The position numbers and the translations under genes are program-made. From the IMG/VR virus record IMGVR_UViG_3300028886_000066, positions 1 through 64,000 of that record: 64,000 nucleotides of DNA. The stretch is one strand, 5' to 3'. The stretch is from a virus. Lineage: Duplodnaviria; Caudoviricetes. Each line of letters opens with the position of its first letter. Within the stretch, counting starts at the first letter, position 1. Shown in pieces: positions 37,762 to 55,097 of this stretch. The notes beneath the pieces are model-generated. The model made no database searches. It saw nothing but the letters and a program-made list of their open reading frames with translations, and was not told the origin of the DNA.

Positions 37762-37931
37762 ATCATTTCAGTTTTAAATTAGACATAAAAAGGAGCGACA
37801 CCGCAAGCTGATGCGATGCCGCCTTACACTCAAAAAACTCTTGATTATGAGCCTCGCGGCTGATAAGCGTCCCGACTCTGGGTTGGCAGGGCGGGGACTG
37901 AATGGAAGTCACGGCGGGCGTGACGTGATGG

Positions 37932-38231
37932 TTAATCCTTGCACCATGAGGCACAGGGAACGCCGTACTTGTCCTGATTGTCAAGCATACGGTAGGCTTT
38001 GCGGACGGCCTCCATGCGCTGCTTGTAAGGCAGACGGGAGAGGCGTTCGCCAGCGTTACTGCATGACTGACAGTAGGCATCGTACTGCTGCTCCTGGTCT
38101 TCGCTCATTGCAAGGACTTCGTCGGTAGTCTTCTGATTTTCAACGTGGTTGAGGAAATAGAAGGCATCCTCTGTGTAGTCGTCAACGTCGATACACAGGT
38201 CAGGGATTGTGAGAGCTTGTTGTTTTTTCAT
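37932..38231 (-). CDS. Hypothetical protein translationally coupled to ftsK
   Basis: Start MKKQQAL overlaps the ftsK stop. Confidence 0.6.
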   Translation of the reverse strand: MKKQQALTIPDLCIDVDDYTEDAFYFLNHVENQKTTDEVLAMSEDQEQQYDAYCQSCSNAGERLSRLPYKQRMEAVRKAYRMLDNQDKYGVPCASWCKD

Positions 38232-39472: not shown

Positions 39473-39542
39473 TTTTTATTTTTTTGCATTGCCGAGTGAC
39501 TTCTCCTCAGCACAAGGCTTCACAGCAAGCCCGATTCGGCAA

Positions 39543-39550
39543 CAAAGTTA
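39543..39550 (-). promoter_or_regulatory. -7 element (TAACTTTG) upstream of ftsK
   Basis: TAnnTTTG. Confidence 0.6.
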
Positions 39551-39629
39551 AACAATAATTTTAAATAACACTTGTTTCCGCAAGGTAATTTAACACCTTT
39601 GCGGAAGATTTTCGGAATAGTTTACAAAA

Positions 39630-41330
39630 TTACGCCACCATTGACGTTTTCGGTGACGCGCACAGGATAACGTCGATGACATTGCATACTGAGCCGTCGG
39701 AGAGAGACACGACACCGTTCTCGATGCGCTCGATAGAAACGCCCGTGGAGAGGCTGACGAAATCGGCGAACCAGTCAGGGAGCGTACACTTGCGCTTGTC
39801 GGTAGGCAGCAGCAGCTCGGAAGAGACGTAGCAGAAGAGCCATCCCTTCAAGCGGATGAACGCCGTTCGCTTGCGCAGAGAAACTACTTTGACGATGCAG
39901 TCGTAGCCAGACGTCGTTTGCAGGATAGCAAAGTCGCCTGCATGGACACCATGAGAGTTGGCATCGACTTGCGGATTGTCTTCGTCAGAGACGTTCTCCA
40001 TGTCAATCTGCTGCATAGCGTCGAAGCGTCGGACGGTCTGAGCGTTACGCAGTTGTTCGCGTATCTCGGACTGAGAGCCGTACTTCAGGAACTCGCAGAC
40101 TTCACAGATAATGTCGGCCTTTGACTTGACTGAGCCGCCACCGAACATATCGCACATTCCAGATGAAGCGGATGACGCCTCGTTGTTGTAGAGGATGAAG
40201 ATACGCTTGAGCGTGTTCGTCTTCGCGCTGTTGATTGCATCGGCGAGAGCCTTGACGATAGGATTGGTGAAGTCGGCCACCGTCGATTCCTGATTGTCGA
40301 AAGCGAGATTGCTCTGACGAGAGAAACCAGACACAACCTGACCAAAGGCGATTCCCGTAGCGAGCGCGTGATAGCAGAGGTGGATGGCCTCGGCCATTTC
40401 GGACTCCAAAGAATACTCGTCGAGACTGATGTTCGTTGAAATCTCGGAGAGAGCCGTGATGATGTTCAGGCGCATACCAGCGAACTTGTTAATCTGACGG
40501 ACTGCATCGGGATTCTTCTGGAAAGCCTTGCCGATAAGCACGTTCTCCAGAATCTCCTTTGCCTTTGCGGAGATACGCTCGTTGCTTGCGCCGTCGAACA
40601 TTTCGGACATCTTCATCCCCGTGATGACCTTTGAGCGAATCAGCTCGGTCACGGCCTCGGATGAGGCTTTCTGACTGGAGTAGAACTCGGCGATAGTGTC
40701 AAAAGTATTGATAGAGCGGATGAGGCGTCGGAACGTCTCGTCGCTGACTTTCTTTCCCATTGACACGGCATCTTCGGTCTTGGACATTCCCTTTTTCTCG
40801 TCCTGATTGAACGCGGCGAAGATTTCCGTAGTGTACGGATATTCATCGTCGGCGACAAGGCAGATGCGCGGATGAGAGAATGACTTGACTTGCTCTTCGG
40901 TGAATCCGTACTTGTTGGGAAATTCTTGCAGGTAGCTAATGTACGCCTTGTCGGTGTCGTAGCGTGCTGCAATTATTCCCGCCATTGTACGTCCGTTACC
41001 AGAGAGGACGATTCCGTCCTTTGAGACGATTGGCGGTATTGTGAGAGCCTGCTCGTCGTAGTTGTCGGCTATTGAGCGCGTGACGGTCTGAGCGAACGTG
41101 TCGCGCTCGTAGTCTCGGTCGTTTACTGTCTGCCCGTTGGAATCGGTTGGGAATCCATCGGACTTGCAGAACGAGTCGAACGGATCGTGACTCGGAGTCA
41201 CTGCGCCCGATTCAGCCAGCAGGTAGCGTCCCTTGACTTTCAGTCCTGACGGCGTAGCGATTTTGTCGGCGTAGCCGTAGAGTTTCCGTGCATCGTCGAA
41301 GCGTTTGCGGATGAGTTGTAAGTTTTCCAT
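39630..41330 (-). CDS. ddrB-like ParB-superfamily domain protein
   Basis: PSHDP, NDRDY, PPIV..DG.VLSGNGRTMA; start at MENLQL where the conserved upstream motif lies. Confidence 0.75.
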   Translation of the reverse strand: MENLQLIRKRFDDARKLYGYADKIATPSGLKVKGRYLLAESGAVTPSHDPFDSFCKSDGFPTDSNGQTVNDRDYERDTFAQTVTRSIADNYDEQALTIPPIVSKDGIVLSGNGRTMAGIIAARYDTDKAYISYLQEFPNKYGFTEEQVKSFSHPRICLVADDEYPYTTEIFAAFNQDEKKGMSKTEDAVSMGKKVSDETFRRLIRSINTFDTIAEFYSSQKASSEAVTELIRSKVITGMKMSEMFDGASNERISAKAKEILENVLIGKAFQKNPDAVRQINKFAGMRLNIITALSEISTNISLDEYSLESEMAEAIHLCYHALATGIAFGQVVSGFSRQSNLAFDNQESTVADFTNPIVKALADAINSAKTNTLKRIFILYNNEASSASSGMCDMFGGGSVKSKADIICEVCEFLKYGSQSEIREQLRNAQTVRRFDAMQQIDMENVSDEDNPQVDANSHGVHAGDFAILQTTSGYDCIVKVVSLRKRTAFIRLKGWLFCYVSSELLLPTDKRKCTLPDWFADFVSLSTGVSIERIENGVVSLSDGSVCNVIDVILCASPKTSMVA

Positions 41331-41396
41331 AATCTTGAGTTTTAGTGATACATAAATTGTACGCACAGGTTGTTTTCGCAGCCCATGCGCTTTGTG

Positions 41397-41579
41397 TCAG
41401 TCTTCAGTGAAGGCATTTGCTTTCTTGAATACTTCGTAGACTCTGTTCTTTGCCTCGGCAATAGCCTCGCAAGCATCTGCATCGGAAACGAGTTTTGTAG
41501 CGTCGTTGTAACGCTCCATTTCGTGCAGGAGTGCAGTCACGATGATGTCGATTTCCTGCTTGTTGAATGTCTCTTTCAT
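41397..41579 (-). CDS. Small early-array protein
   Basis: 60 aa. Confidence 0.65.
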   Translation of the reverse strand: MKETFNKQEIDIIVTALLHEMERYNDATKLVSDADACEAIAEAKNRVYEVFKKANAFTED

Positions 41580-41834
41580 AATTCGTACTTAAATTGAGTT
41601 AAACTTTAGGTGAATTGTTTTTGTAGTTGCAAAAATATTCCTACTTTTGCAACCGAAAACCATGTGGGAGGTGTGCAAGACCTCCCTTTGGACTTACCGA
41701 AGCGAAACGGCCAACGTAACGCTGACGTGCCAAATTCTAATCGAAATGCTGAATCTCATAGAAACATGGTTTTTTATCCCTACACTTTACTATCTGGCTT
41801 TCGGGACTGCCAACCCGCTACACGTAACAGGATT

Positions 41835-42170
41835 TCATTCTGAGCGAACGAGACGTCTGACCTCGTCGTAGATTCGCAGCATATTGTCGATGGAGAGGAA
41901 GCAAGAACTGCCCCAGTACTCATCGTTGAACTGCGTGACGTAGAACTGGCTACCATTTCGGCTGTCCATGTAGGCAATACGGTCGGCAAGGATTGTCTCG
42001 CTTGTCTCGTTCTTGAAGTTGTGGAGAATCAGCGTATGACGAAACACGACATCCTGCCCGACTTCTGCTCCAAGCTGTTTCAGCAGCTCGATTGTCGATG
42101 TGGTTATTGACTCGCGGCACTCGGCTACGGCGTTGTTCACTCGCTTGTTTGTCTTAGTCTTGATTTTCAT
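41835..42170 (-). CDS. Early-array protein
   Basis: 111 aa, motif upstream. Confidence 0.7.
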   Translation of the reverse strand: MKIKTKTNKRVNNAVAECRESITTSTIELLKQLGAEVGQDVVFRHTLILHNFKNETSETILADRIAYMDSRNGSQFYVTQFNDEYWGSSCFLSIDNMLRIYDEVRRLVRSE

Positions 42171-42237
42171 AATTGTTGAGTTTTAATTGGTTAGACATAA
42201 ATTCGTGAGCCGCCCCGCGATTGGGCGTTTGCGGCTC

Positions 42238-42528
42238 TTAGAGAGACTTGTACTCTTCGTACTTTGTCTTCATACCAACAGGAGCGTAGACGTTCAGGGC
42301 GTAGTCTACAAGTGCTTCCTGCAAGTCCAAGTCAAGTTCAACAAAGAAATAGTTCATTACCGCATGACTTCCGTAATCGTCGTAGATTTGGTTAAACTTC
42401 CCTCTTAGATGGTTTTTGAGGTAGTTTTTTCCAGTCTTCTCGCAGATGTAGTTGATAAACTCTTCTGGATTCGGGTAGTTGTAGCCGAATTTCACAAAGA
42501 TGTGAACAAGTAGCATTTCTTTTCTCAT
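42238..42528 (-). CDS. Early-array protein
   Basis: 96 aa. Confidence 0.7.
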   Translation of the reverse strand: MRKEMLLVHIFVKFGYNYPNPEEFINYICEKTGKNYLKNHLRGKFNQIYDDYGSHAVMNYFFVELDLDLQEALVDYALNVYAPVGMKTKYEEYKSL

Positions 42529-42543
42529 AATCGTACTTTTGTT

Positions 42544-42702
42544 TTAGAGTTCAACTTCCTGTTCGATGTCCATAAGATAGCCCTCTTTTCCGCAATTCGG
42601 GAAAGCACAAGTGCCGTAATCGACGTACATTTCCGTCATGCAGCTGTTGCAGATGACGTGGTCTGGGCAGAAGTAGTTCACGTTGGAAAAATCTTTAATC
42701 AT
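42544..42702 (-). CDS. Small Zn-finger-like early-array protein
   Basis: 52 aa translated by hand (CNSC...CAFPNC), motif upstream. Confidence 0.65.
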   Translation of the reverse strand: MIKDFSNVNYFCPDHVICNSCMTEMYVDYGTCAFPNCGKEGYLMDIEQEVEL

Positions 42703-42777
42703 AATTGTTTGAGTTTTAAATTGTTAGACATAAAATTCGTACTCGGCAGGCAACTTTCGTGTCTGCCAAGCAGGGAG

Positions 42778-43026
42778 TTACGCTTCGATTTCGTCAAGCG
42801 TCAGTTCGATGGAATACTTTTCGAGCGCTTCAAACATCCATTTCTTACGGCGGTACTGTAACTCTGCCCAAGACTCGCGGTAGTCTTCATCTTTGTCGAG
42901 ACGGTTGGCTTCGCGACGAGCAATCAGATACTCGTTGATGTCGTTCAGGACTTCAGCCGTTTCCTCGAAGTCGAAGTCACGGCACATCATCTCGTTCAGG
43001 AGTTCGATAAGTGTCTGTTGTTTCAT
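42778..43026 (-). CDS. Acidic early-array protein
   Basis: 82 aa. Confidence 0.7.
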   Translation of the reverse strand: MKQQTLIELLNEMMCRDFDFEETAEVLNDINEYLIARREANRLDKDEDYRESWAELQYRRKKWMFEALEKYSIELTLDEIEA

Positions 43027-43304
43027 TCTTCCTCAAAGTTTAGGTAGAGATTCTGTCTTGCCATGTCGCAGTAATCAATGGAGCCAATCGGCTCGCACAA
43101 TTCCCAATCCATTTCCTCGTCGGTATGAAATTCTGGATTGCGACCTGAATAGATGCAGTTCACGTTTGAGCAGTTGAAAGCGGAAAGTGAGCCGTCGCTG
43201 GTGTCGTAGACAAATTCGATGCCCTTGTTTCTGGCTTCGCAGAGGACTGCGTTAAGTTTCTTCAAAACTTCGAGATGTTCGGTAGTTAATGCTTTTTGTT
43301 TCAT
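43023..43304 (-). CDS. Early-array protein
   Basis: Start MKQKAL with motif upstream. Confidence 0.7.
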   Translation of the reverse strand: MKQKALTTEHLEVLKKLNAVLCEARNKGIEFVYDTSDGSLSAFNCSNVNCIYSGRNPEFHTDEEMDWELCEPIGSIDYCDMARQNLYLNFEEE

Positions 43305-43459
43305 AATCATTTGAGTTTTTAAGGGTTAGACAATAAAAAGTGACGGCAATGAGTTTTTCGCTCAAAGCCGACTGCAAGTTTAGCATCACAAAGTCCACAC
43401 CTGAAATGAGGTGGATAGCGTGGGAGCTGGCAAAGCTGATTGCCTGCGCCCTGAAGAGT

Positions 43460-43690
43460 TTAGATGTTTGCTGTGCAGAAGAAATCGTCGTTCACAAAAC
43501 AAACGCCCTCGTAGTTCCTGAAAATCACGCAGTCAGGAACAATTTCGTCGGCGTTTGCTAAATCGAAATAGGACGGCTCGTTGTAGTCCACGTCTAAGAC
43601 TTCTGCAAACGTTCCCTCATCGGCGAGCTGTTCGAGATAGTTACATTTCAGCTCAGTCAGTTGTTCTCTTGTTAATTCTGTTACGTCCAT
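43460..43690 (-). CDS. Highly acidic early-array protein
   Basis: 76 aa. Confidence 0.7.
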   Translation of the reverse strand: MDVTELTREQLTELKCNYLEQLADEGTFAEVLDVDYNEPSYFDLANADEIVPDCVIFRNYEGVCFVNDDFFCTANI

Positions 43691-43693
43691 AAT

Positions 43694-43900
43694 TCATTTC
43701 AGATTAAGTTCACATTTGATTCCTAATTTCATACAGAGAAGTTCGTACTCGGCAAAGTACTTGTGGTCACGCAGGATTCCCTCTTCGATTTCATGTCTGA
43801 GAGTTTTTTCTGCCCGTTTGATTGCATCGACGTTGTGGTTGTTCTGCCAGAAGTCCCACAGATATTCGCCGATTGCGATTCTGATTTTGTCTAAGGTCAT
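43694..43900 (-). CDS. Early-array protein
   Basis: Start MTLDKI with motif upstream. Confidence 0.65.
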   Translation of the reverse strand: MTLDKIRIAIGEYLWDFWQNNHNVDAIKRAEKTLRHEIEEGILRDHKYFAEYELLCMKLGIKCELNLK

Positions 43901-43964
43901 AATCGTTTGAGTTTTAAGGTGAAACAATAAGTGCAATCGGTAACGTTTCCGCTACCGAAAGCGT

Positions 43965-44201
43965 TTAGAACTGGACTTGCGACACGAACCATTCTTCGCG
44001 GAATCCGTACTTTGCGGCGACTTGATTCCCTGTGCGTTGAACATTGCGAATGTCTCGGCGGTGTAGTCGTAGTCATCATCACAGAGGAAGACGAGGCGGG
44101 AATGTGAAAAACCATCGAAATCGATGGGTTTAAAGCCGTACTTCTTGCAGGTTTTCAAGAGCTGCTTCGAGTATTTTTAGGCAGTTCAACTACTATTTCA
44201 T
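43965..44201 (-). pseudogene. Frameshifted array cassette (restorable to MKIVVELPKKYSKQLLKTC...EEWFVSQVQF)
   Basis: ATG after the motif is followed by AAA TAG; three single-base insertions in homopolymer runs restore one ORF. Confidence 0.5.
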
Positions 44202-44213
44202 AGTCTCTGAGTT

Positions 44214-44447
44214 TTAATTGTTGATTAAATTCTTGATTTCTTCTTGTGTTTCGGTGACGCGGATTTCCTTATATTGGACTCCGTTGGTGTATTCGACTAA
44301 GGCGTAGGGATAGCCCCAATACTTCGCTTCGGATTCGTTTACATTCTCGAAACGGACGATGCAATCAGAGTTGAATGTCACCTTTGCGGTTTTCATCTCC
44401 TCTGTTGCGCCACTTGTAATAACTGTAAGGTCGATAAATTTTGCCAT
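44214..44447 (-). CDS. Early-array protein (FlbD-like pattern)
   Basis: FIDLT...FN.D.I..FE...V.ET.EEI. Confidence 0.7.
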   Translation of the reverse strand: MAKFIDLTVITSGATEEMKTAKVTFNSDCIVRFENVNESEAKYWGYPYALVEYTNGVQYKEIRVTETQEEIKNLINN

Positions 44448-44459
44448 AATCTTTGCGTT

Positions 44460-44690
44460 TTAATATTCAACTTTGATTCCACAACTTTTGATGATATTCT
44501 CCTGTGCTTTGTGTACGAAAGCAGGAGCGAAATAGCCATCAGTCCACATTATCAGTTCTCCGTGCATACCACGCTGATAACCGATGTAATGTGTTTCAAT
44601 AGCACCCGTGCTAAGCCCATGACTTTTTAGCACGTCAATAACTTTCTGTACGCACCCAGGGCGCGTTTCGAGATAATACAATTTGTTCAT
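44460..44690 (-). CDS. Early-array protein
   Basis: Start MNKLYY. Confidence 0.65.
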   Translation of the reverse strand: MNKLYYLETRPGCVQKVIDVLKSHGLSTGAIETHYIGYQRGMHGELIMWTDGYFAPAFVHKAQENIIKSCGIKVEY

Positions 44691-44745
44691 AATCTTAATG
44701 TTTTGAAATGTATAGTAAGCCACGCCGAAACTAATCCGTGTGACT

Positions 44746-44889
44746 TTAGTGGGGTAAAGTAACGTAAAGTGGCCAGACAATCAGATTACGCTCGTTCTTT
44801 ACGTCTTTAACGTAATACGTTCCGTTGTAGCAGTGTTCGCAAGTCGAAATTCGTCTTGCAATACAATCTTTGCAGCATTTGTACTTCAT
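44746..44889 (-). CDS. Small Cys-rich early-array protein
   Basis: MKYKCCKDC...CEHC with ATGA overlap. Confidence 0.5.
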   Translation of the reverse strand: MKYKCCKDCIARRISTCEHCYNGTYYVKDVKNERNLIVWPLYVTLPH

Positions 44890-45131
44890 AGTGCAGAAAA
44901 TTCCGTTGAAACATCTTTCCAGTCCGTAAACACCTTTGACACTTTGTCCCAATACTCTGTGCCGTTGTGTTTCCCCAGAGAAACCTCAATCGTGAAGAGG
45001 TGCATCGTCTTGAAATTTCCGTCATCGTAGATACGATAGGATTTTCCGTCCTTACCAGTCTTTCGCTCAATCTCTCTCGGAGCAAGCAGATAAGCCATTC
45101 TCTCAGCTTCGTTCTTGAAATTCTTTTTCAT
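44886..45131 (-). CDS. Early-array protein
   Basis: 81 aa, motif upstream. Confidence 0.7.
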   Translation of the reverse strand: MKKNFKNEAERMAYLLAPREIERKTGKDGKSYRIYDDGNFKTMHLFTIEVSLGKHNGTEYWDKVSKVFTDWKDVSTEFSAL

Positions 45132-45197
45132 AATCTTTTGAGTTTAGTGAAACAATAAATTTGTACCTTTGCGGAAAACCGATTCCGCAAAAGTAGT

Positions 45198-45356
45198 TCA
45201 GGAGATTCTTTCGAGACGTTTGTTTGCGCCTATCCAGTGATGCAGGACGGATGACGGCGATAAGTCTGCACTGTCGAACTCGTAGGTTTTCACTTCGTCG
45301 GTGTGGTCGTGGTTTTTCGCGGACATGGGATTGTAGGTGAGTCTGTATTTGGACAT
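45198..45356 (-). CDS. Small early-array protein
   Basis: 52 aa translated by hand (MSKYRLTY...). Confidence 0.5.
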   Translation of the reverse strand: MSKYRLTYNPMSAKNHDHTDEVKTYEFDSADLSPSSVLHHWIGANKRLERIS

Positions 45357-45360
45357 GGCC

Positions 45361-45573
45361 TTAGATATTTACGAAGTAGAGCCACGAATTAATCAGCGAA
45401 ATCTCGTCATCGTTGACTTTTTCAGAAAGTTCATCCAGAGTGAGGATGTCTGCCTCGTCATATCCGAAATTGGATGCAATGTTAGCGAGGTCGTACTTCT
45501 CTCTGTCGCTCATCTTTACCAACTCGTCACGATTGTAAGAGTCGGCGGAAAATAATAATGCGTAAGTTTTCAT
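45361..45573 (-). CDS. Acidic early-array protein
   Basis: 70 aa, motif upstream. Confidence 0.7.
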   Translation of the reverse strand: MKTYALLFSADSYNRDELVKMSDREKYDLANIASNFGYDEADILTLDELSEKVNDDEISLINSWLYFVNI

Positions 45574-45643
45574 AATTCTTTGAGTTTAATAAGTGAAACA
45601 TAAATTTGTAGAGTAGGGGAAACTAATCCCCAGACTCCGACGG

Positions 45644-45913
45644 CTACATCTTTTCGGGATTCCAGATGTCATCCTTTGTAGCCCATTTCTCAATCTTCTC
45701 GCCACAAACCATTGCGTGAACAAGGAAAAGAAGATTGCGCGTACTTGTAGAACTGCATTTCATCATGCAGAGTCCGACACCTCGTCTCAGGAAATACCAG
45801 AAATCAGGCTCATTTTCAGTTCCGCAATTATTGACGGTTGCGGTAATGAACACGTTTTTCTTTGCAGCGCACTTGATAGCGTTTGAAACCAAATTGTCAA
45901 TACAATACTTCAT
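45644..45913 (-). CDS. Early-array protein
   Basis: 89 aa, motif upstream. Confidence 0.7.
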   Translation of the reverse strand: MKYCIDNLVSNAIKCAAKKNVFITATVNNCGTENEPDFWYFLRRGVGLCMMKCSSTSTRNLLFLVHAMVCGEKIEKWATKDDIWNPEKM

Positions 45914-45970
45914 AATCTTTAGAGTTTAGTGAAACATTTGCGATGTTTGGGACATTTCTGCCCCAAACTT

Positions 45971-46204
45971 CTACGCAGCAATCTTTTCGCGCACCTTAGC
46001 GACTTTCTCAGGTGTATCGAACCAGCACCGACCGTCAATGCAGTAATACTGCAAATCATCTTGTGGAACGTGATAGACTTCAATCACTTTCTCGTCAGTT
46101 ACTTTCTCGGCAAACTGCTTAACTTCTTCTTCTGTCAAATCGTAGGTGTAAACAAGGCAGTTGTCGCCATTCTCGAAATTCACGAATAAATTCTTTACTT
46201 CCAT
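45971..46204 (-). CDS. Early-array protein
   Basis: Start MEVKNL with motif upstream. Confidence 0.7.
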   Translation of the reverse strand: MEVKNLFVNFENGDNCLVYTYDLTEEEVKQFAEKVTDEKVIEVYHVPQDDLQYYCIDGRCWFDTPEKVAKVREKIAA

Positions 46205-46271
46205 AATCTTTGAGTTTTTAAGTGAGACATAAAATTCGTACTTCGCAGGACATTCCAGCCCTGCAAAGCGG

Positions 46272-46610
46272 TTAGATACAAAAGTCCGATTCATACCCGC
46301 CTTTGTTGTCAGGCCACATCGGATAATTTGTAAGGATGAATCCAAGATGATAGAACGGGAACTTGAACTTTGCCACATTTGAGCCATCATCAAGCAATCC
46401 CAAAAGCGGCTTGACCATTTCCGTAGCCTTTTCGTCAATGTACTTTTCAGAATACCACCATGCCAGAGGCTCGTTTGCAAACATTGCACGCATTATATTC
46501 TTGATTGATTCTTTTATCTCATCAAGATTGTCACTGCTGGAAATGTTCAGAGAATGAGACTCTTGCGTGTGACAAGTGGTCAGGTACAGATAAAATGCTT
46601 TCTTTTCCAT
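46272..46610 (-). CDS. Early-array protein
   Basis: 112 aa, motif upstream. Confidence 0.7.
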   Translation of the reverse strand: MEKKAFYLYLTTCHTQESHSLNISSSDNLDEIKESIKNIMRAMFANEPLAWWYSEKYIDEKATEMVKPLLGLLDDGSNVAKFKFPFYHLGFILTNYPMWPDNKGGYESDFCI

Positions 46611-46676
46611 AATTTTTGAGTTTTAAAGTGAATACTAATTTTGTACTTCGCAGGAAAATTGATTCCTGCAAAGTGT

Positions 46677-46877
46677 TTACTTTCCGTAATTTGGATTCGG
46701 CACTCGCGTTTCAGTTATCCGCACTCTTGCACCTGCCTCACGATAGCCAGCAACGTCACGGCGAACGTCGGAATACTTTTCTTCTGGCTTAAAGTAAGAA
46801 CATTCGATTTCCCATCCGTAGCCGTAGTTTGTCCAGATATTCCATCCGTACAGATACTTGTTTTCTTTCTTTTTCAT
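46677..46877 (-). CDS. Early-array protein (NYGYGWE motif)
   Basis: 66 aa, motif upstream. Confidence 0.7.
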   Translation of the reverse strand: MKKKENKYLYGWNIWTNYGYGWEIECSYFKPEEKYSDVRRDVAGYREAGARVRITETRVPNPNYGK

Positions 46878-46941
46878 AATTCATAAAGTTTTAAAAGTGA
46901 AACATAAGCGACTCAGGGAAGAATTAACCTCCCCGAATCTT

Positions 46942-47343
46942 TCAATGAAGAGTCAAGCCTAAAAGTTCGTATGTCGTCATACCCATTTCGCGGATAGGCT
47001 CTGCGAGAATGGCATGATTCAGATGAGGACATTTTGTTGAGCCGATTTTTTCATCCTCTGCAATGAACTTTCCGACTTTGAGAAGAACCCATCTCTGATT
47101 TGTTTCGGGATAGACTCTTTTCATCGTGCAGAGCAATTCCGTAACGTCAACATAAACATCGAATTTAGAATACTCGTAAGCCAGATAAGTCTCACGGTCA
47201 ACTTGTTTGCCGATTTCTTTTTCGTACTCGTCAAAAAGAGCTTGATGTTTCTTCCAGCTGATTTTCCCGTTTTTGTCAAGAATACTTTTGCTGAAAATCT
47301 CGCCTTCCAGACTCTTGATTGTTGAATAATCATACTTTGCCAT
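46942..47343 (-). CDS. Early-array protein
   Basis: 133 aa, motif upstream. Confidence 0.7.
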   Translation of the reverse strand: MAKYDYSTIKSLEGEIFSKSILDKNGKISWKKHQALFDEYEKEIGKQVDRETYLAYEYSKFDVYVDVTELLCTMKRVYPETNQRWVLLKVGKFIAEDEKIGSTKCPHLNHAILAEPIREMGMTTYELLGLTLH

Positions 47344-47405
47344 AATTCAATGAGTTTTAAGTGAAACAATAGAATCAGTGGGCTAAACTGATAGCCCAGA
47401 GATTT

Positions 47406-47666
47406 TTAGAACCATCCAAGAAATCCCAAATAACGTGTGGACTTCCTTTTCTGACTTGCGTTTACTTTCGGGTTGATTGCGCCGTGAGTGTAGCCGTAAG
47501 TTTCTTTGCGGTAGATTGCATCCATTACAGCATAGACTTCTTTGTAGTCTTCAACTTTGCTTAGGTCGATTGCGTTACGCTTGAATAATTTGTTCAGATT
47601 GCACTCAACCGTTTCCCAAGAGACAAACTGCTCTTTGCACATCTCCAAAAATTTCTCTTTTTCCAT
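47406..47666 (-). CDS. Early-array protein
   Basis: 86 aa, motif upstream. Confidence 0.7.
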   Translation of the reverse strand: MEKEKFLEMCKEQFVSWETVECNLNKLFKRNAIDLSKVEDYKEVYAVMDAIYRKETYGYTHGAINPKVNASQKRKSTRYLGFLGWF

Positions 47667-47733
47667 AATTCAATGAGTTTAGATTGTTAGACAAATTTTG
47701 AACAATCGGGCAAAACTAATCGCCCGAAAGTTT

Positions 47734-48075
47734 TCAGCCGAAACGGTTCAGGTCGTAGGAAACAGAAACGAGACATTTGTTCAAATCTGTTACTACTTCC
47801 TCGAACTCGAATGTCTTCTTGACAAATTGCTGGTCGTACTTCATGATGATTTCCTTTGCAAGCGCAAAACTCTCTCTCTCGATATTCCCGTCTCTATGTC
47901 CAGAGTAAAGAGTGAATTTCTCATGCCAGATGTCTCCGTTGTTTGAAAGGAAAGTTTTCTCATCCCTTTCTGCAATACAAATCACACCATAGAAACCGTG
48001 AAAGAAGAAATAGTTCTTTCCAGTGAAGAGAATGTTGACTTCTCCACCAAATAATTCTGATTTAAAAAATTCCAT
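47734..48075 (-). CDS. Early-array protein
   Basis: 113 aa, motif upstream. Confidence 0.7.
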   Translation of the reverse strand: MEFFKSELFGGEVNILFTGKNYFFFHGFYGVICIAERDEKTFLSNNGDIWHEKFTLYSGHRDGNIERESFALAKEIIMKYDQQFVKKTFEFEEVVTDLNKCLVSVSYDLNRFG

Positions 48076-48148
48076 AATTCATAAAGTTTTAAAGATTAAA
48101 CATAAATTAGCCACCAGAGCGAAAATTAATCCGCTCCGATGAAAAGAT

Positions 48149-48448
48149 TCAGATGATTTCTTTCTTTATCATTTCAGCCAAAGCCAAAAGCGTAAAGCCA
48201 GCGTTTCCGTCGTAGGCCAAATCCTTGCGGCAGACGACATTGTGATAGAAAGCGTTTTCGAAAACATCTTCATTGCAACTCAGGCTTGCGCCGACGGCGG
48301 TACGGTACGGGTCAATCATGTAAGCGATGAGGTTTGCGCGTTTTCCTAAGATTCGGATGACTTCCTGTGTACGATTGCGGACGATTTCGATTGCATCATC
48401 AATCTGCTTGTCGGTGTAAAGGCGACGCTTTTCGATTTTCTTTTTCAT
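48149..48448 (-). CDS. Early-array protein
   Basis: Start MKKKIEK with motif upstream. Confidence 0.7.
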   Translation of the reverse strand: MKKKIEKRRLYTDKQIDDAIEIVRNRTQEVIRILGKRANLIAYMIDPYRTAVGASLSCNEDVFENAFYHNVVCRKDLAYDGNAGFTLLALAEMIKKEII

Positions 48449-48526
48449 AATTCTGTGAGTTTTTAAAGTGAAACATAAATCGTAGGCACGCCAACTTCTC
48501 AGCCAGCGCACCCGAAACATTATCCA

Positions 48527-48730
48527 TTATGAAACTACAATTCCAAACATTTCAATTCTCCGATTGATTTCCGCTTTTGCTTCTTTCAGAGTATCAGTAA
48601 TCATCGGAATCATATAACCACAGGAATAGATTTCGTACTGCTTTGCAGGAATCCATTTCGTACCGTCAAATTCAACTACTCTTTTTCGCTGAATTTCATA
48701 ACCTTTGTAGGTGTAAGTCTTTGTAATCAT
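48527..48730 (-). CDS. Early-array protein
   Basis: 67 aa, motif upstream. Confidence 0.7.
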   Translation of the reverse strand: MITKTYTYKGYEIQRKRVVEFDGTKWIPAKQYEIYSCGYMIPMITDTLKEAKAEINRRIEMFGIVVS

Positions 48731-48798
48731 AATCTTTTGAGTTTTAAGTGAATAATTCGCTCCCCGAAAATATTTCTCGTACTTTCGGGAAAATTGTG

Positions 48799-49248
48799 TT
48801 ACGCAGCTTCTTTTTCCTGTTCGCGCTCGTATTCAAGTTCGGAAATCCACTCGCCGAAATTGTAAGTGAGTCCCCAAGTTCCGAAAGCACGGAAAAACCA
48901 ATCAAACGCCCACGTCTGGAACTTCTTCAAATCTTCGTCGGAAATAGTTTCGTCGTCAATGCTTTTTATCACATCGTCAAACGTTCCCCACGGCTGAATC
49001 TCAGAACCGATAAACTCAGGACAATATTCCCAGTCTTCACGAATATTGCAGAAATTCCCGCACATCTTCGTATCTTTTCTGTGAACGTACTTTTTCATCG
49101 ACTCCAAAGTTTCAAACGCGGAGTTGGCAGCGTAATCTTCGGTTTCGGATTCCCAAGAACCGTAATCCATTCCGTAATTTTCGATTGTCTCCTTGAAGAG
49201 ATTCAGGAACGTTTCGTAAACGTCATCGTAATTCAAAAAATCTTTCAT
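48799..49248 (-). CDS. Highly acidic protein, possible DNA mimic
   Basis: 149 aa, ~35 D/E versus ~14 K/R, aromatic-rich. Confidence 0.7.
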   Translation of the reverse strand: MKDFLNYDDVYETFLNLFKETIENYGMDYGSWESETEDYAANSAFETLESMKKYVHRKDTKMCGNFCNIREDWEYCPEFIGSEIQPWGTFDDVIKSIDDETISDEDLKKFQTWAFDWFFRAFGTWGLTYNFGEWISELEYEREQEKEAA

Positions 49249-49319
49249 AATGGTTGAGTTTTTAAAAGTGAATAAATAATTATCGTACTTTGGCGCAGGA
49301 CTGACCGCGCCAAAATAAA

Positions 49320-49649
49320 TCAGGATACTTCGATAATTTCGTCAATGCGTCCGCAAACAACATGACGCAGTGCAGTTTTATCAAAAGCATAATACTCAAA
49401 CCAACTTCCGTATTGGTTAATAATGTACCTTTTCAGGAAATCTTTGAAACCAAATAGCCAACCTTGCAGCGGAATAGAATGCTTTGAAAAGGTGTTGTGA
49501 AAAACTTTTTCGGAAATCCAGTTCTTTTCTTCGCGTGAAAGTTTCTCGCCATTCATGCACTTTTGTTTGAGTTGATAAACTTTGCTTTCTTTCAATTCTT
49601 CGAGCGCAGGAACTTCCCACGTTACGAACTTGTAAGCCATTTCTTTCAT
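49320..49649 (-). CDS. Early-array protein
   Basis: 109 aa, motif upstream. Confidence 0.7.
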   Translation of the reverse strand: MKEMAYKFVTWEVPALEELKESKVYQLKQKCMNGEKLSREEKNWISEKVFHNTFSKHSIPLQGWLFGFKDFLKRYIINQYGSWFEYYAFDKTALRHVVCGRIDEIIEVS

Positions 49650-49715
49650 AATTATTTTGAGTTTTAGGGGTTAATTTTCGTACTTCCCGCGAAATCTCTC
49701 TCACGGGAAATAAAT

Positions 49716-49862
49716 TCAGCGCAAAGACGGATAACGTTTCATGATACGCTCGCACTCCCTGGATAAAGTCAGATACAACATAGAACTTTTTTCAAGATTC
49801 GCCATGATGTTACGATTCGCGTTCAACGAATTGCTCGCAACCAATTTGTCTAATTTGCTCAT
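49716..49862 (-). CDS. Small early-array protein
   Basis: 48 aa translated by hand. Confidence 0.5.
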   Translation of the reverse strand: MSKLDKLVASNSLNANRNIMANLEKSSMLYLTLSRECERIMKRYPSLR

Positions 49863-49865
49863 AAC

Positions 49866-50084
49866 TCACGCAACTTTTGATTTCATAAGTTTGTCGTACA
49901 AAGTTTCTGGAGTATCTTTTTCCTCCCAGAACATTTCAAGACAGGCGCAAATCTCATTCTTCGTAGCGTTTGGGAAAACATCACGAACAACTTCCGACAT
50001 CTTTTTCGTACTCTCAGGATTAACCCAAGCAAGAAGAGGATCATCAAAAATCCTCTCCAGTTCCTTTCTTAATTCTTCTTTCAT
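49866..50084 (-). CDS. Early-array protein
   Basis: 72 aa, motif upstream. Confidence 0.7.
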   Translation of the reverse strand: MKEELRKELERIFDDPLLAWVNPESTKKMSEVVRDVFPNATKNEICACLEMFWEEKDTPETLYDKLMKSKVA

Positions 50085-50148
50085 AATTATAAGAGTTTTA
50101 AGTGAATAAAAAATCGTACTATCGGTAAGATTTACCCTACCGATAATT

Positions 50149-50289
50149 TTAGAAACACAAACCTATATTCTGCTGAGAATTGAAAAACTTTTCAGCTTTC
50201 TCAAGCATTTTCGTACTACCACAACCGAAATTGTAATACAGTCGATAAACTCTTTCGAGCTGTTCGGAAATCTGTTTGAACGTTTTCAT
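50149..50289 (-). CDS. Small early-array protein
   Basis: Start MKTFKQI. Confidence 0.6.
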   Translation of the reverse strand: MKTFKQISEQLERVYRLYYNFGCGSTKMLEKAEKFFNSQQNIGLCF

Positions 50290-50351
50290 AATTTTCTCCT
50301 TTCTGAAATAAAATTCGTACTTCGTGCCAGCTCTCACCAGCACAAAGCAAA

Positions 50352-50795
50352 TTACCAGACTTTTATCGGCTTTCTTTTCGGATTCATCAACGCGCCACCT
50401 TTCAAGAAAGAATTGCAGGCGCGTTTCAGAGATTTCCCAGAATAGAATTGCCAAAGCTGACCGTCAATTTCATCGCCGTTTTCATTTATCGGCATGAAAT
50501 CGGAATTGTAACGGCCATCGGGTGAAACCTGAGTTTCATAATGCTCAAATTCATTTTTCCCGTCGTAATTCTCGTAGCCGATTGTTCCGACATAAAGTTT
50601 TCTTTCAGTGTCGAAAACTTCAGCGGTGAAATACGGATGACCAAAAGACAAATCTGAAAAATCGACATAAAATTTCGGATTCGGATTTTCTTTTGTCGCT
50701 CTCATCGTCGTCCCGTGACTTTCGTCTTTAATGTACGGGCAAAACTGCAAACCGAGATTCGCAGAAGTCTTTTCGCAAAATTCTTTGAAGTTCAT
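50352..50795 (-). CDS. Early-array protein
   Basis: 147 aa, motif upstream. Confidence 0.7.
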   Translation of the reverse strand: MNFKEFCEKTSANLGLQFCPYIKDESHGTTMRATKENPNPKFYVDFSDLSFGHPYFTAEVFDTERKLYVGTIGYENYDGKNEFEHYETQVSPDGRYNSDFMPINENGDEIDGQLWQFYSGKSLKRACNSFLKGGALMNPKRKPIKVW

Positions 50796-50867
50796 AATCT
50801 TTGAGTTTTAATTGTGAATAATTATCGTACTTCCAAAATATTTTTCGTACTTTGGAAGTGAAAAGTA

Positions 50868-50963
50868 CTATCCGAAAAACAGGATAACAAAGTAAGTCAG
50901 GACAAGCCAGCAGATGCAGCAGATGAAACCGCCACAGAAATCTAAAATCTCTTTTCTATTCAT
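50868..50963 (-). CDS. 31-aa single-TM peptide
   Basis: MNRKEILDFCGGFICCICWLVLTYFVILFFG, translated by hand. Confidence 0.5.
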   Translation of the reverse strand: MNRKEILDFCGGFICCICWLVLTYFVILFFG

Positions 50964-51030
50964 AATTTTCGTACTTTGAAATAATTATCGTACTCTGGAA
51001 GTAATTTTCGTACTCCCAGAATTTTCGTAC

Positions 51031-51240
51031 TTACTGATACGCTGCAATCAATTTCCAATCGTTACGGTTTTTCACGTAAACCTGAATCAGAAAAGCGTTC
51101 ACGTCGCGTTTCGCTTCTGCAAAAATCTTGCGGGCGTGTACCTGAGCATCGGCGTGACACTCAAACATTTCACGATGAAAATTAAAACCAGCGGTCAGAT
51201 TCGTGTTCTGAAAATGAATCTCGAACAAATAACTTTTCAT
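51031..51240 (-). CDS. Early-array protein
   Basis: Start MKSYLFE with motif upstream. Confidence 0.7.
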   Translation of the reverse strand: MKSYLFEIHFQNTNLTAGFNFHREMFECHADAQVHARKIFAEAKRDVNAFLIQVYVKNRNDWKLIAAYQ

Positions 51241-51286
51241 AATCTTTTGAGTTTTTAAGTAAGACAATTAGCTTTCGCCACCTGAA

Positions 51287-51592
51287 TTAACAGGCAGCGA
51301 AATAAAGTTTTCGGTAAGTCTTGAAATCAATTCCGTTTTCTTTCAGGAACTCACAACTCCACCGAAATTCTTTCATAAGAGATTGCAAACGCTCGAAGTC
51401 GCAAAGGAAATCATAAAACTTTTGAAAATCCCTGGACTTTTCAATTCCTAAATTCTGAATCATTGAAAATTCAGCTTCCAAGTCACGCGAAAGAATAATC
51501 AAATATCTTTGTTCGCGCGAATAGTTCTTCACGAAATATTGTGCGGCCTGACTCCGCTGGGAATCAAGCCGTTTTCTATCTTCTGACATCAT
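51287..51592 (-). CDS. Early-array protein
   Basis: 101 aa. Confidence 0.65.
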   Translation of the reverse strand: MMSEDRKRLDSQRSQAAQYFVKNYSREQRYLIILSRDLEAEFSMIQNLGIEKSRDFQKFYDFLCDFERLQSLMKEFRWSCEFLKENGIDFKTYRKLYFAAC

Positions 51593-51717
51593 AACGCAAG
51601 AGTTTTGATTGTTTCAATACTTTTTGCGCCGCAAATTGCGCACATCATAACGTCACCGAACTTTGCGGAAATCTTTTCAGAAAGTTCCGCGAGCTTGTAA
51701 ATTAAATCGTCGTTCAT
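51589..51717 (-). CDS. Small early-array protein
   Basis: 42 aa translated by hand, motif upstream. Confidence 0.5.
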   Translation of the reverse strand: MNDDLIYKLAELSEKISAKFGDVMMCAICGAKSIETIKTLAL

Positions 51718-51747
51718 AATCTTTTGAGTTTTATTGAGTGAATAAAT

Positions 51748-52020
51748 TTAATCTCTCTCAAAGTGCTTTGTTGCAACAAATTCCGTAATTGCAGAAATCG
51801 GATAAACGAATTTTATTCCGTCATCATTCCGAGAAAAATTGCGCCCGACCGCAATCTGTGTGCGGACGATTGAATAAACCTTTTCCAAATCAGAATCTAA
51901 AATGGAATTGTGCCACTCGATTTCAATCTGGAAATCATTTACTTTCTTGATTGATACTCTGTAAAGAGTTACATTCCCGTCGATAGTGTCGATGGAAATA
52001 CGATAAACTTTTGTTTTCAT
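51748..52020 (-). CDS. Early-array protein
   Basis: 90 aa. Confidence 0.7.
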   Translation of the reverse strand: MKTKVYRISIDTIDGNVTLYRVSIKKVNDFQIEIEWHNSILDSDLEKVYSIVRTQIAVGRNFSRNDDGIKFVYPISAITEFVATKHFERD

Positions 52021-52339
52021 AATTGATAATGTTTAAAATTTATTGAGCTTTAATACGGAATCGAACCGCCGAGAAATTTCTAAAAGAAATCTTCAAACCA
52101 GAATAAAACAAAAAGGAAATGACAAAACGGAAATCTTTTAACCCGTCACTTTGTTTTTCAAAATCTTTTCGGAAAACTTCCGCTTTGTCACTCCAAAAAA
52201 TCTTTTCACGTTTCAACAAAAATGCAAACGCCAAAAAGATTTGCAACGAAAACTCAATTATGAATTTTTCTTTTGCCGTTTTTCGTCGCTTTTTTCGTTT
52301 TCCGCAAATATCACTTTTTAGAATCGGTTGCAAATAAAA

Positions 52340-53290
52340 CGCCGACGGGATCACCCGCCGACGAAACACCACCGCCACCGTCACCCGCCGCCCTGATATG
52401 GGCAGGAGTGAGGAACGGCAGCAGGGCAGCAGGGCAGACCACCCGCCACAAAGGGCAGGCAGGCCACCGCCGCCGCCGCCCTGATATGGGCAGGAGCAAC
52501 ACGACGAAACACGGCCGCCGGGAACATCATGCAGGGCAGGGAAACCGCCGACACCCGGACACCTAAACCCGCCGACCCACGCCGACAAGCCCCCAAGACA
52601 CCGACCCCACCACCGCACAAAAGGCAGCGGGGCAGGCCGAGGAACAACCCGACGCAACCGACGGAGGAACCAGGGCAGCAGGAACACCACCCACACACAA
52701 CGCCCCCAGCGTTTTAGTACACTCCCAGTTACAACCGACAAGACAACCGCCCGCCCTGATAGCAACCAGGAGGAACGGAAACAAGCCCCAGGGCACCCAA
52801 CAACCCGCCGCCACAAAGGGCAGCAGGGCAGCAGGGCAGGCAAGCCAACGCCAACCAGCAACACCGCCACAAGGGCAGCGCACACGATCAGCAAGCCCGC
52901 CACCAATCGACAACCAGGAACACCACCGCAGGAACCACGCAACCACGCCGGGCAATTTTCCGCCAACACCACCGAAACAAAGGGCAGGGAGGGCAGAACA
53001 CACCCAACGCGAACACGCAGCCAAAGGACACCCAAAGGGCACCCACAAGGGCAGCACCAACGCCGAAAGGGCAGGGAGGGCAGGAGCAACCGGGCAGGCT
53101 AAGCCCCGGAAACTCCCTACTTTAAGCAGGATAAGCAGTTACGGAAAGCCCGTCTAAACCGTAACAGTCGATCGTCAAAAAGTAACTTTTGCGCCCTGAT
53201 GAGGAAACGAACCCCAACCGCCTAAAGGCAGGCCACCAGGCCAGAGCAGGAGGCAGGCAGCAGGAACACCGCCCACCCTGATAGGGTGCA
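52340..53290 (+). repeat. Strand-asymmetric, T-poor, GC-rich non-coding tract with GGGCAG, CCGCCACAAAGGGCAG and GCCCTGATATGGGC repeats
   Basis: ~18 GGGCAG all on +; ccgccgccctgatatgggcaggag twice (~52386, ~52474). Confidence 0.8.
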
Positions 53291-53291
53291 A

Positions 53292-54371: not shown

Positions 54372-54418
54372 AATAAATAATGATTAAATGATTAATAACT
54401 GATTTACTTATTTATATC

Positions 54419-54619
54419 TTAATACCTTTCGAAAGTATTTATATAACTGATAGAATCCACAAGAGGAGCAACAACCAACAACGCCCAACCGATAAGGGCT
54501 AAATTTGTCCCCGCTAATGTAAGAGGAGTAAACAGACCAGCCGCGATAGCGACACCCAGAAAGGAAACACCACCCAACAGCAGGGAAGCAACCAAAAACG
54601 ATAAATCATACTTTTTCAT
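54419..54619 (-). CDS. Small two-TM membrane protein
   Basis: 66 aa, directly after the promoter at 54659-54666. Confidence 0.65.
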   Translation of the reverse strand: MKKYDLSFLVASLLLGGVSFLGVAIAAGLFTPLTLAGTNLALIGWALLVVAPLVDSISYINTFERY

Positions 54620-54658
54620 ATTCTTGAAATTTTTAGTGAATAAACCAATTTAACGCTG

Positions 54659-54990: not shown

Positions 54991-55097
54991 GTTAAGATTT
55001 TGACTTAACGTTTTTAACATTCTTAAAGTTTTGAAGAAAAGTTAGTGCATAATGTCGAAAAAATGGTGTAGTGTTTGGAGAATGGTTTAAAATGGGG

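Follow-up and report, generated by a model that had tools for sequence, protein, structure and literature searches.

A repeated hairpin connector with a recurrent hexaloop in the small-gene array of a cattle gut phage, a candidate counterpart in role of the T4-type PeSLs

T4-type phages carry repeated intergenic units, the promoter early stem-loops (PeSLs), in which a near-consensus host σ70 promoter is combined with a stem-loop which terminates transcription (G-run, loop, C-run, T-run), as described by Arbiol et al. 2010 (PMC2839356) and Comeau et al. 2014 (PMC4122927). Here, we describe a connector of ~70 nt which joins the small genes of an array in the phage record IMGVR_UViG_3300028886_000066 (IMG/VR; 104,673 bp, rated complete). 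The window is the first 64 kb of this record (64,000 nt) and shares its numbering. The array is read from the minus strand, called the sense strand below. The present genome is labeled G000, and the loci of its relatives carry the labels L128 to L143. With a probability of about 50%, the connectors would be RNA-level intercistronic modules of a hyperplastic cassette array, lying on long transcripts, with the hairpins serving as 3’ caps or insulators and with an apex read in trans. The array, its core and one example of the conserved leader are located as follows:

36479 to 52020, minus strand: gene array, ~35 small co-oriented genes joined by the connector; the genes span 52020 to 36521
41328 to 52020, minus strand: array core with 22 connectors of 55-110 nt each, defined by open reading frames (ORFs)
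46202 to 46241, minus strand: conserved leader, example, GTACGAATTTTATGTCTCAC-TTAAAAACTCAAAGATT-ATG

Almost every spacer of 60-85 nt shows one shared order of parts on the sense strand. The stop codon (UGA/UAA-AACUUU) lies within a UGAAAACUUU-like sequence and is followed by a hairpin of 10-14 bp with a free energy (ΔG) of -11 to -23 kcal/mol, which consists of a G-rich 5’ arm, the apex R-R-UYRRWU-Y-Y, a C-rich 3’ arm and AAAGU closing the stem. The stem is followed by a single-stranded ACGAAWWUUAU and then GUYUMAC; the last part is UUAAAACUCAA, 2-6 nt and AUU-AUG. Hairpins of ≤ -10 kcal/mol were found in 81 of the 88 spacers from seven loci. A search of positions 36000-55500 on both strands with the Rfam covariance models gave no match at E ≤ 1. 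Beyond the core, the array runs through ParB-like, FtsK-like and Xer-like genes, and the last connector hairpins lie at 36915-36883 and 36508-36479. The Xer-like recombinase gene (37761-36916, 281 aa) has a cassette leader on its 5’ side and a class-1 hairpin on its 3’ side.

The original prediction, made from the letters of the window, had listed hairpins with three conserved loop classes in this region. All of them were found again where they had been placed, with sense-strand folds of -11 to -23 kcal/mol (z-scores, -2.8 to -5.7). The observation is confirmed, and the case for it is stronger than originally put. Furthermore, the entire connector of ~70 nt is conserved and forms the scaffold of a cassette-shuffling region like that of the T4 PeSLs. 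The plus-strand octamer AAAYYRAT of class 1 corresponds to the sense hexaloop U-Y-R-R-W-Y together with its A-U closing pair. The 12 class-1 hairpins of G000 are given from the head of the array to its end:

51273 to 51302, minus strand: class-1 hairpin, loop UUAAUU, which contains the stop codon of gene 51592-51287
49286 to 49317, minus strand: class-1-like hairpin, loop UCAGUC, GTACGA on the 3’ side
48111 to 48142, minus strand: class-1 hairpin, loop UUAAUU, stem UCAUCGGAGCGGA/UUCGCUCUGGUGG, several G-U pairs
47701 to 47732, minus strand: class-1 hairpin, loop UUAGUU, stem UCGGGCGA/UUGCCCGA, a G-U pair adjoining the A-U closing pair
47373 to 47404, minus strand: class-1 hairpin, loop UCAGUU, stem UGGGCUA/UAGCCCA
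46905 to 46944, minus strand: class-1 hairpin, loop UUAAUU, stem CGGGGAGG/CUUCCCUG
46645 to 46674, minus strand: class-1 hairpin, loop UCAAUU, stem ACUUUGCAGGAA/UUCCUGCGAAGU, GTACAA immediately 3’
45608 to 45641, minus strand: class-1 hairpin, loop UUAGUU, stem GGGGA/UCCCC within GGAGU/ACUCU
45164 to 45195, minus strand: class-1 hairpin, loop UCGGUU, stem UACUUUUGCGGAA/UUCCGCAAAGGUA
44717 to 44746, minus strand: class-1 hairpin, loop UUAGUU, imperfect stem
36883 to 36915, minus strand: class-1 hairpin, loop UUAAUU, immediately 3’ of the Xer-like recombinase gene
36479 to 36508, minus strand: last hairpin of the array, sense loop UUAGUU; its plus-strand reading is a canonical terminator followed by CTTTTTTGTG

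The class-1 loop was found in 10 of the 22 cassette hairpins of G000, compared to an expectation of 0.9% per hexamer (binomial test, 2.5e-15). When distinct hairpins of the G000 clade, i.e. the present phage and its close relatives, were counted, 23 of 43 cassette hairpins and 8 of 355 other hairpins from the same loci carried it (Fisher’s test, 4e-19). An eleven-bp hairpin with the loop UUAGUU also occurs outside the window, at 77459-77500 on the plus strand, sense-oriented between late (tail-region) genes and without a U-tail. Thus, the loop type is not restricted to the array.

For the covariation test, the 23 class-1 hairpins were aligned at their loops and nine stem pairs were evaluated, using 500 shuffles and a sliding control. 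Standard pairs filled 91.8% of the cells, compared to 60.3 ± 2.4% in the shuffles (0/500 reached the observed value) and 37-62% when the arms were slid, and both sides had changed in all nine stem pairs. The stem-pairing figure is partly circular, since the hairpins had been selected by folding; this circularity does not touch the loop enrichment or the compensatory changes at orthologous sites. One such site is the hairpin after the 133-aa gene, whose arms read CGGGGAGG/CUUCCCUG in G000, CGGGGAUG/CGUCCCUG in L137 and CGGGGCAA/UUGCCCUG in L140 between identical flanks; as aligned, these differences are compensatory. Both results bear out the claim that compensatory changes indicate selection on a folded single strand.

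Within the loop of the 23 hairpins, U1 is invariant and U5 and U6 are conserved in at least 90%. The closing pair is A-U in 18 of the 23, the second pair is G-C (9), G-U (8) or A-U (5), and the closing pairs have a purine on the 5’ side in 22 of 23 cases. The stems had been thought to vary freely under a fixed loop. The fixed loop does sit on unrelated stems and the changes are compensated, but the base ACTTT/AAAGT and the two apical pairs (R-R/Y-Y) are conserved and the 5’ arm is G-rich, so that the hypervariable portion is the core of 5-6 bp alone. A recurring stem family, CUUUGCAGG, carries three different loops (UCAAUU, UGGAAU and UUAAUU).

In 19 of the 22 ORF-defined spacers, the fold of the sense strand is more stable than that of the antisense strand, and the mean difference is 5.2 kcal/mol (p = 2.6e-4). 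In stem positions 1-7 of the class-1 set, 16 G-U pairs and 2 A-C pairs were counted. Compared to control hairpins chosen in the same way, the strand asymmetry is higher in the connectors of the G000 clade (p = 0.0017), but not in those of the sister clade. Because of the energy asymmetry, the excess of G-U over A-C and the GNRA tetraloops described below, the sense strand is named as the folded one. The folded species is therefore mRNA or, less simply, the non-template DNA strand. That the single-stranded fold is read by a protein, as the original prediction had it, goes further than the selected fold on the sense strand, and no reader protein was identified.

Classes 2 and 3 turned out to be less uniform than class 1. 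Their hairpins are present, but class 2 comprises two GAAA tetraloops and one hexaloop, and class 3 is a mixture of GNRA-type loops (41375, 42752) and loops containing GTACGARAA (48776, 50843, 51006). Both classes mostly consist of generic GNRA loops, or of loops holding the GTACGAAAA motif that usually adjoins the stem on its 3’ side. The features concerned are:

43933 to 43962, minus strand: class-2 hairpin (43943), GAAA tetraloop
45942 to 45971, minus strand: class-2 hairpin (45952), GAAA tetraloop
46240 to 46269, minus strand: class-2 hairpin (46250), UGGAAU hexaloop; stem family CUUUGCAGG as in 46674-46645
50829 to 50859, minus strand: hairpin with a GTACGAAAAA copy within the loop and a second GTACGA 3’ of the stem
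51022 to 50992 and 48792 to 48760, minus strand: similar hairpins with the motif in the loop
50961 to 51033, minus strand: tandem cluster of four AGTACGAAAAT copies near the array head; relatives have 3-5 copies at the equivalent place

GNRA loops account for 10 of the 81 hairpins. GTACGA lies directly 3’ of the stem in 34 of the 81 and within the loop in 10 of the 81, and is unpaired in both arrangements.

Relatives were collected as contigs with homologs of the 133-aa array protein or of the primase (ENA, Logan), together with one relative from IMG/VR. From IMG/VR, the JGI metagenomes and the representative genomes, only two contigs were obtained, a viral one of 21 kb and another of 1.7 kb; the primase has 276 relatives at E ≤ 1e-20. 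Both primase relatives read as DNA have the same hairpin connectors, and two others, for which gene calls were used, have similar small-gene arrays. The connector is the same in L142 and L143 (primase 61% and 51% identical, respectively), where the loops UUAGUU, UUAAUU, UCAGUU and UUGGUU sit on other stems and where hairpins with GTACGAAAA inside the loop occur as well. In the sister clade L129-L135 (primase 47%), a hairpin follows every gene, but none of its 34 loops belongs to class 1; they are G-poor and often CUUACAA-like. For the hairpin after the 133/134-aa gene, L139 reads CGGGUGA-UUGAUU-UCGCCCG and L129 reads CGGGCGA-ACUGCUA-UCGCCCA, i.e. the stem was kept and the loop was changed.

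The array genes turn over quickly around these joints. Between 1 and 3 of 12-23 array genes are shared with G000, whereas primase, portal and terminase are syntenic. Homology around the 133-aa gene starts just 3’ of the preceding stop codon in two loci or within the leader in a third, and stops at the next ATG; the breakpoints are not at a fixed position. As judged from these contigs, genes are shown to have been exchanged between relatives around the connectors. Joints in contigs of four DNA runs, with sides of 21-33 nt within repeated leaders, were indistinguishable from cross-matching of connectors and were not used. The module of hairpin 47701-47732 opens with the stop codon inside TGAAAACTTT. 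Hairpin 47373-47404 has identical copies in L136 and L140 despite different upstream genes. The 29-nt hairpin GGAGTCTGGGGATTAGTTTCCCCTACTCC (45641-45608) is identical in L142 (46-110) at 61% primase identity, and the flanking genes are unrelated. Either the connectors move independently or genes are swapped between stable connectors.

The absence of sense-strand U-tails, which had led to the hairpins being called poor intrinsic terminators, was confirmed. At least 5 U within the 8 nt 3’ of the stem were found in 5 of the 81 hairpins from seven loci. In the usual layout, U’s stand 5’ and A’s stand 3’ of the stem, which extends the helix and leaves no U-tail on either strand. The connector hairpins thereby lack the GC-rich hairpin with an immediate U-tract which marks a canonical intrinsic terminator. 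The missing tails look designed, because the genome uses canonical terminators elsewhere (52363-52340, minus; 36479-36508, plus; 16460, plus).

In the preferred reading of the connectors as RNA-level modules, the array would be transcribed from its head, i.e. from the 320-nt AT-rich, ORF-free region 52340-52021, and from the internal host-type box at 41637. Long transcripts are favored since the connectors lack a host-type promoter and the spacing of their conserved boxes varies by up to 7 nt. Each hairpin would act as a 3’-end cap or insulator on the RNA of the upstream cistron, and the unpaired AU-rich GUACGAAAAUU beside it would be a site of transcript cutting or of binding. This segment is always single-stranded, either beside the helix or in the loop, and has a weak likeness to the RNase E core motif RN|WUU (Chao et al. 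2017, PMC5222698). The fixed apex would be read by a putative trans factor, as a fixed apex implies a sequence-specific reader, and the loop switch in one clade suggests that this reader is phage-encoded. Owing to their distinct stem cores, the 30-odd hairpins would not mispair with each other and deletions between connectors would be limited, while the conserved connector parts would supply homology for cassette exchange, as in the T4 PeSLs. Of the four functions originally suggested for the hairpins, endoribonuclease processing and protein-read RNA stay as the core of this reading; single-stranded DNA (ssDNA) promoters and attC-like sites do not.

A more specific version is put forward tentatively and is, in our view, doubtful. 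The apex R-R-UYRRWU-Y-Y and the unpaired GUACGAAAA would form the site of a dedicated phage-encoded RNA-binding or RNA-cutting factor, which matures a transcript of ~11 kb into ~35 hairpin-capped messages, and the loop change of the sister clade would reflect co-evolution. If true, a large family of gut/rumen phages would possess a private mRNA-processing system addressed by sequence.

Several points weigh against the RNA-level reading. The hairpins were ascertained by sense-strand folding, and the ORF-defined spacer test, which avoids this bias, has n = 22; the G-U asymmetry is equally compatible with folding of the non-template DNA strand. In AU-rich leaders, chance matches to RN|WUU are to be expected. 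The loops of the sister clade are heterogeneous, so that the class-1 loop is not essential to the basic role of the hairpin. A terminator lies upstream at 52363-52340, and the array therefore needs a promoter of its own, but the 320-nt region before the first gene contains merely near-consensus -7 boxes, which leaves room for promoters in the connectors. No candidate for a reader protein or nuclease was recognized; the two conserved proteins at the operon head (54371-53292 and 53089-52040) had no match in PHROG, Pfam or the PDB sequences, and the AlphaFold2 model of the 359-aa protein (predicted local distance difference test score, pLDDT, 72.8) had no Foldseek match at E ≤ 0.001. Among the public runs listed as containing the phage, there is no RNA run.

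The main rival explanation is a true promoter-terminator unit, which we regard as a live possibility at well below even odds. Here, the hairpin would attenuate transcription arriving from upstream, and each connector would contain a GTACGA...TTATGTYTMAC promoter for a host RNA polymerase which has been reprogrammed by an early product, encoded in the operon upstream. Units of this kind would resemble a middle-promoter class such as the MotA-dependent promoter middle stem-loops (PmSLs) of phage nt-1, and PeSLs and PmSLs together provide the precedent (PMC2839356, PMC4122927). In that case, transcripts would start downstream of GTACGA or TTATGTTTCAC in each connector. The signals around the array head which bear on this explanation are:

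52340 to 52363, minus strand: canonical intrinsic terminator with a 10-bp GC stem and then UUUUAUUUG, located just 5’ of the array
54910, 54868 and 54666 (within 54659 to 54917), minus strand: perfect Bacteroidota -7 boxes (TAnnTTTG, then C) at the head of the leftward operon

The terminator divides the operon driven by host promoters (54910 to 52340) from the array, and the 320-nt region 3’ of it precedes the first array gene. The plus strand likewise has a perfect host-type -7 box at an operon head, at 55098. Counted over the whole genome, the GTACGA-type motif has 12 copies on the minus strand, every one of them within the array, and a single copy on the plus strand; this fits a strand-specific, array-confined promoter element, as do the tandem groups of 3-5 copies seen close to the array head in three clades. 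TATGTTTC is the host box TAnnTTTG but for its last base, and some connectors of L143 read AACTTTTG. In three genes, GTACGA stands immediately before ATTATG, 7-8 nt before the ATG, as expected of leaderless starts. On the other hand, no perfect TAnnTTTG exists on the sense strand of the connectors except by overlap with two hairpins (45195, 47718), and a -33 TTTG at the proper spacing is missing from all of them. The spacing among GTACGA, TMAC and ATG varies, with a GTACGA-TMAC gap of 5-12 nt, which makes the connector a poor fit to a two-box promoter. Attenuation at hairpins without U-tails would be non-canonical, and the repeated placement of the motif inside hairpin loops is left unexplained. 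No sigma factor was found in the genome and no phage RNA polymerase was recognized; the search for a T7-type enzyme (PF00940) gave no match, but its positive control failed too, so it is uninformative.

The second explanation, which is unlikely, takes the hairpins as protein operators. A phage regulator would bind the UYRRWU apex on nascent or mature RNA and would time or shut off many cassettes, in analogy to lambda N/boxB, coat protein/operator pairs or translational repression by T4 RegA. The loop sequence, the loop size and the orientation of the two closing pairs are held on unrelated stems down to 51% primase identity, and in one clade the loops have changed identity together, as expected if the specificity of the reader had changed. 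However, about half of the connectors have this loop, and the rest carry GNRA or unrelated loops at the same position. An RNA-binding candidate was not recognized and a boxA-like partner was not seen. The operator explanation overlaps the preferred reading of RNA-level modules and does not exclude it.

It is very unlikely that descent and copying alone account for the pattern, with a few ancestral modules spread by recombination, a loop without a reader, and stem cores diverging fast through quasipalindrome template switching or through selection against recombination between connectors. The conservation of the whole module, including the stop-codon context TGAAAACTTT, the recurrence of the stem family CUUUGCAGG with different loops and the varied loops tolerated by the sister clade fit such a history, and the C(UUCG)G hairpins of T4 reportedly represent a recurrent loop without a necessary protein reader. 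However, a neutral loop would be expected to change no more slowly than its stem, whereas U1, U5 and U6 are 90-100% conserved on more than 20 stems across deep divergence. Moreover, UYRRWU closed by A-U does not belong to the known extra-stable loops, and one orthologous hairpin swapped its loop and kept its stem. Finally, ssDNA elements, i.e. attC-like sites of a cluster of attC sites lacking integron-integrases (CALIN) used by the adjacent tyrosine recombinase, hairpins of the repetitive extragenic palindrome (REP) or IS200 type, or N4-type promoters, are highly improbable, for although the cassette layout, the hairpin at the 3’ end of each gene, the Xer-sized tyrosine recombinase gene inside the array (37761-36916) and a conserved tetranucleotide-like GTAC at the hairpin foot recall them, the favored fold is that of the sense and not of the bottom or template strand, which disfavors both the attC and the N4 reading, and the enzymes and dimensions compared at the end of this text do not agree.

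Four further candidate roles of the loop and its surroundings were rejected. As a host -33/-7 promoter box, 47718 alone reads TAGTTTTG, at an inconsistent spacing to -7-like boxes. Perfect plus-strand TAnnTTTG boxes in three connectors (45156, 45601, 46636; -33 spacing 15 nt) would represent antisense host-type promoters; they were judged coincidental, as most connectors are without a box. Pairing of the loop with the leader (loop AGUUU, leader AAACU) gave -1.36 kcal/mol with the own leader and -1.44 kcal/mol with shuffled leaders, and neither clade shows a signal. In-frame back-up stops were considered since YRR of the loop is in frame with the stop codon in 8 of the 12 hairpins; this is not an independent signal, because the conserved module starts with the stop codon at a fixed offset of 18 nt.

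The phage is present in public bovine gut metagenome runs. Its genome encodes a structural set of portal, large terminase, major head protein, a 2570-aa tape-measure protein and two tail-region proteins of ~2000 aa, as well as a D5/DUF5906 primase, helicases, an integrase and the ParB-like/FtsK-like/Xer-like trio. It is a siphovirus-like phage of ~105 kb from the cattle gut. We infer a member of the Bacteroidota as the host, because Bacteroidota-type -7 boxes occur at the operon heads and nearly all cassettes lack a Shine-Dalgarno sequence. The one cassette with a true Shine-Dalgarno sequence (AAAGGAG, 7 nt 5’ of the ATG) is that of the 46-aa gene 50289-50149 (region 50149-50354); both the gene and this sequence are retained in L128 and L142. 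No prophage copy of the phage was found in the representative genomes.

Additional observations concern the array and its surroundings. The ddrB-ParB-type ParB-like gene, the motor-only FtsK-like gene and the Xer-like gene (36916-41330, minus strand) are transcribed in the same direction as the array. A decayed cassette is visible at 43897-44216, where a leader-like TTAAAACTCAGAGACTATG is followed by merely ATG AAA TAG; ~200 nt of weak, mutually overlapping ORFs then separate this remnant from the following hairpin and leader. The 261-nt ORF-free spacer 41577-41837 within the array has a strong fold (ΔG -69 kcal/mol), divergent perfect host-type -7 boxes at 41637 (minus, TATTTTTG) and 41642 (plus, TACTTTTG), and a GC hairpin at 41666-41686. 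This spacer may encode a small RNA or serve as a regulatory node. Upstream of the terminator 52363-52340 (region 52021-52600), a G-rich direct repeat, CCTGCCCATATCAGGGCGGCGG, is present in two copies, and a 349-aa ORF with a TTG start (53089-52040) extends across the terminator; it is probably an over-call. The 359-aa protein (53292-54371, minus strand) that heads the leftward operon is conserved beside the primase in all relatives examined; its Ser/Gly-rich N-terminus (residues 1-89) is disordered and its body is helical. In the sister clade, a 662-nt region upstream of the array (L129, 7829-8490) contains many palindromic CAAAGTTTG and ACAAACTTTGT motifs and a canonical terminator, and may be an operator or origin region.

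The connector marks a big, fast-turning store of small accessory genes, probably for host takeover or counter-defense, in a family of ~100-kb phages from cattle and other guts which appears to be large. Its motifs could be used to find such arrays and to delimit cassettes in metagenomes. Bacteroidota make little use of Shine-Dalgarno pairing, and few studies have addressed their post-transcriptional control, to which a defined RNA element with ~12 copies per genome would offer a tractable entry. The PeSL idea of portable regulatory joints and modular shuffling would gain a case in another phage type, in a different host phylum and with an anatomy of its own, whose new features are the lack of a host promoter and of a terminator tail, the compensated hypervariable stem core and the fixed hexaloop.

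Among systems at the RNA level, intercistronic C(UUCG)G hairpins were reportedly described in phage T4 mRNAs by Tuerk et al. in 1988. The likeness lies in a recurrent loop on varying stems between cistrons, and the GAAA/GAGA loops of the present array follow the same stable-tetraloop logic. The A-U-closed UYRRWU differs in not being known as extra-stable, and therefore thermodynamics alone is no explanation for it. The early genes of T7 and T4 have RNase III and RNase E processing sites between cistrons, where cleavage leaves a stabilizing 3’ hairpin on the upstream mRNA. The connectors share with them the hairpin beside a single-stranded AU-rich segment between cistrons of a presumed long early transcript, but their stems are too short for classical RNase III. 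With boxB, the connectors have in common a conserved loop and closing pair on a stem of free sequence. Compared to the lambda nut sites, there are ~12 copies per genome instead of 2, and a hexaloop replaces the GNRA-like pentaloop; inspection by eye showed no boxA-like partner, and an N-like protein, at which no search was aimed, was not recognized.

Among systems at the DNA level, attC and CALIN arrays likewise have a structured site at the 3’ end of each gene, co-oriented cassettes and a tyrosine recombinase nearby. attC sites fold on the bottom strand, whereas the connectors fold on the sense strand and supply each cassette with its own translation leader. The nearby recombinase is not IntI (TIGR02249 scores of 25.3 bits for the 281-aa recombinase and 40.9 bits for the 429-aa integrase, cut-off 265); the R/L boxes (RYYYAAC/GTTRRRY) and R’’/R’ boxes are missing, with ACTTT/AAAGT at the stem base, and the crossover point is not fixed. 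The ssDNA promoters of phage N4 are template-strand hairpins with a stem of 5-7 bp and a loop of 3 nt, used by a virion RNA polymerase. The stems of 10-14 bp and the loops of 4-8 nt differ from these dimensions, the sense strand is favored, and the three giant proteins have no polymerase-family match and no DxDGD motif. No Y1 (HUH) transposase and no REP-associated tyrosine transposase (RAYT) was found in the genome, as would accompany elements of the REP or IS200/IS605 type.

The closest likeness is to the PeSLs. In both cases, an intergenic unit of ~70-100 nt, made of a stem-loop and the start region of the next gene, is repeated among the small orphan genes of a hyperplastic region, close relatives differ by gain, loss and replacement of genes with breakpoints in the units, and degenerate as well as tandem partial copies occur. 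The differences concern the anatomy. The connectors have no host-type (TAnnTTTG) early promoter per unit, and the hairpin precedes the leader instead of lying between -35 and -10 boxes. The U’s 5’ and A’s 3’ of the stem replace the terminator tail, half of the loops are one hexaloop, and host phylum and phage type are others. By this comparison, the connector is best described as PeSL-like in role and distinct in anatomy, with a conserved hexaloop.

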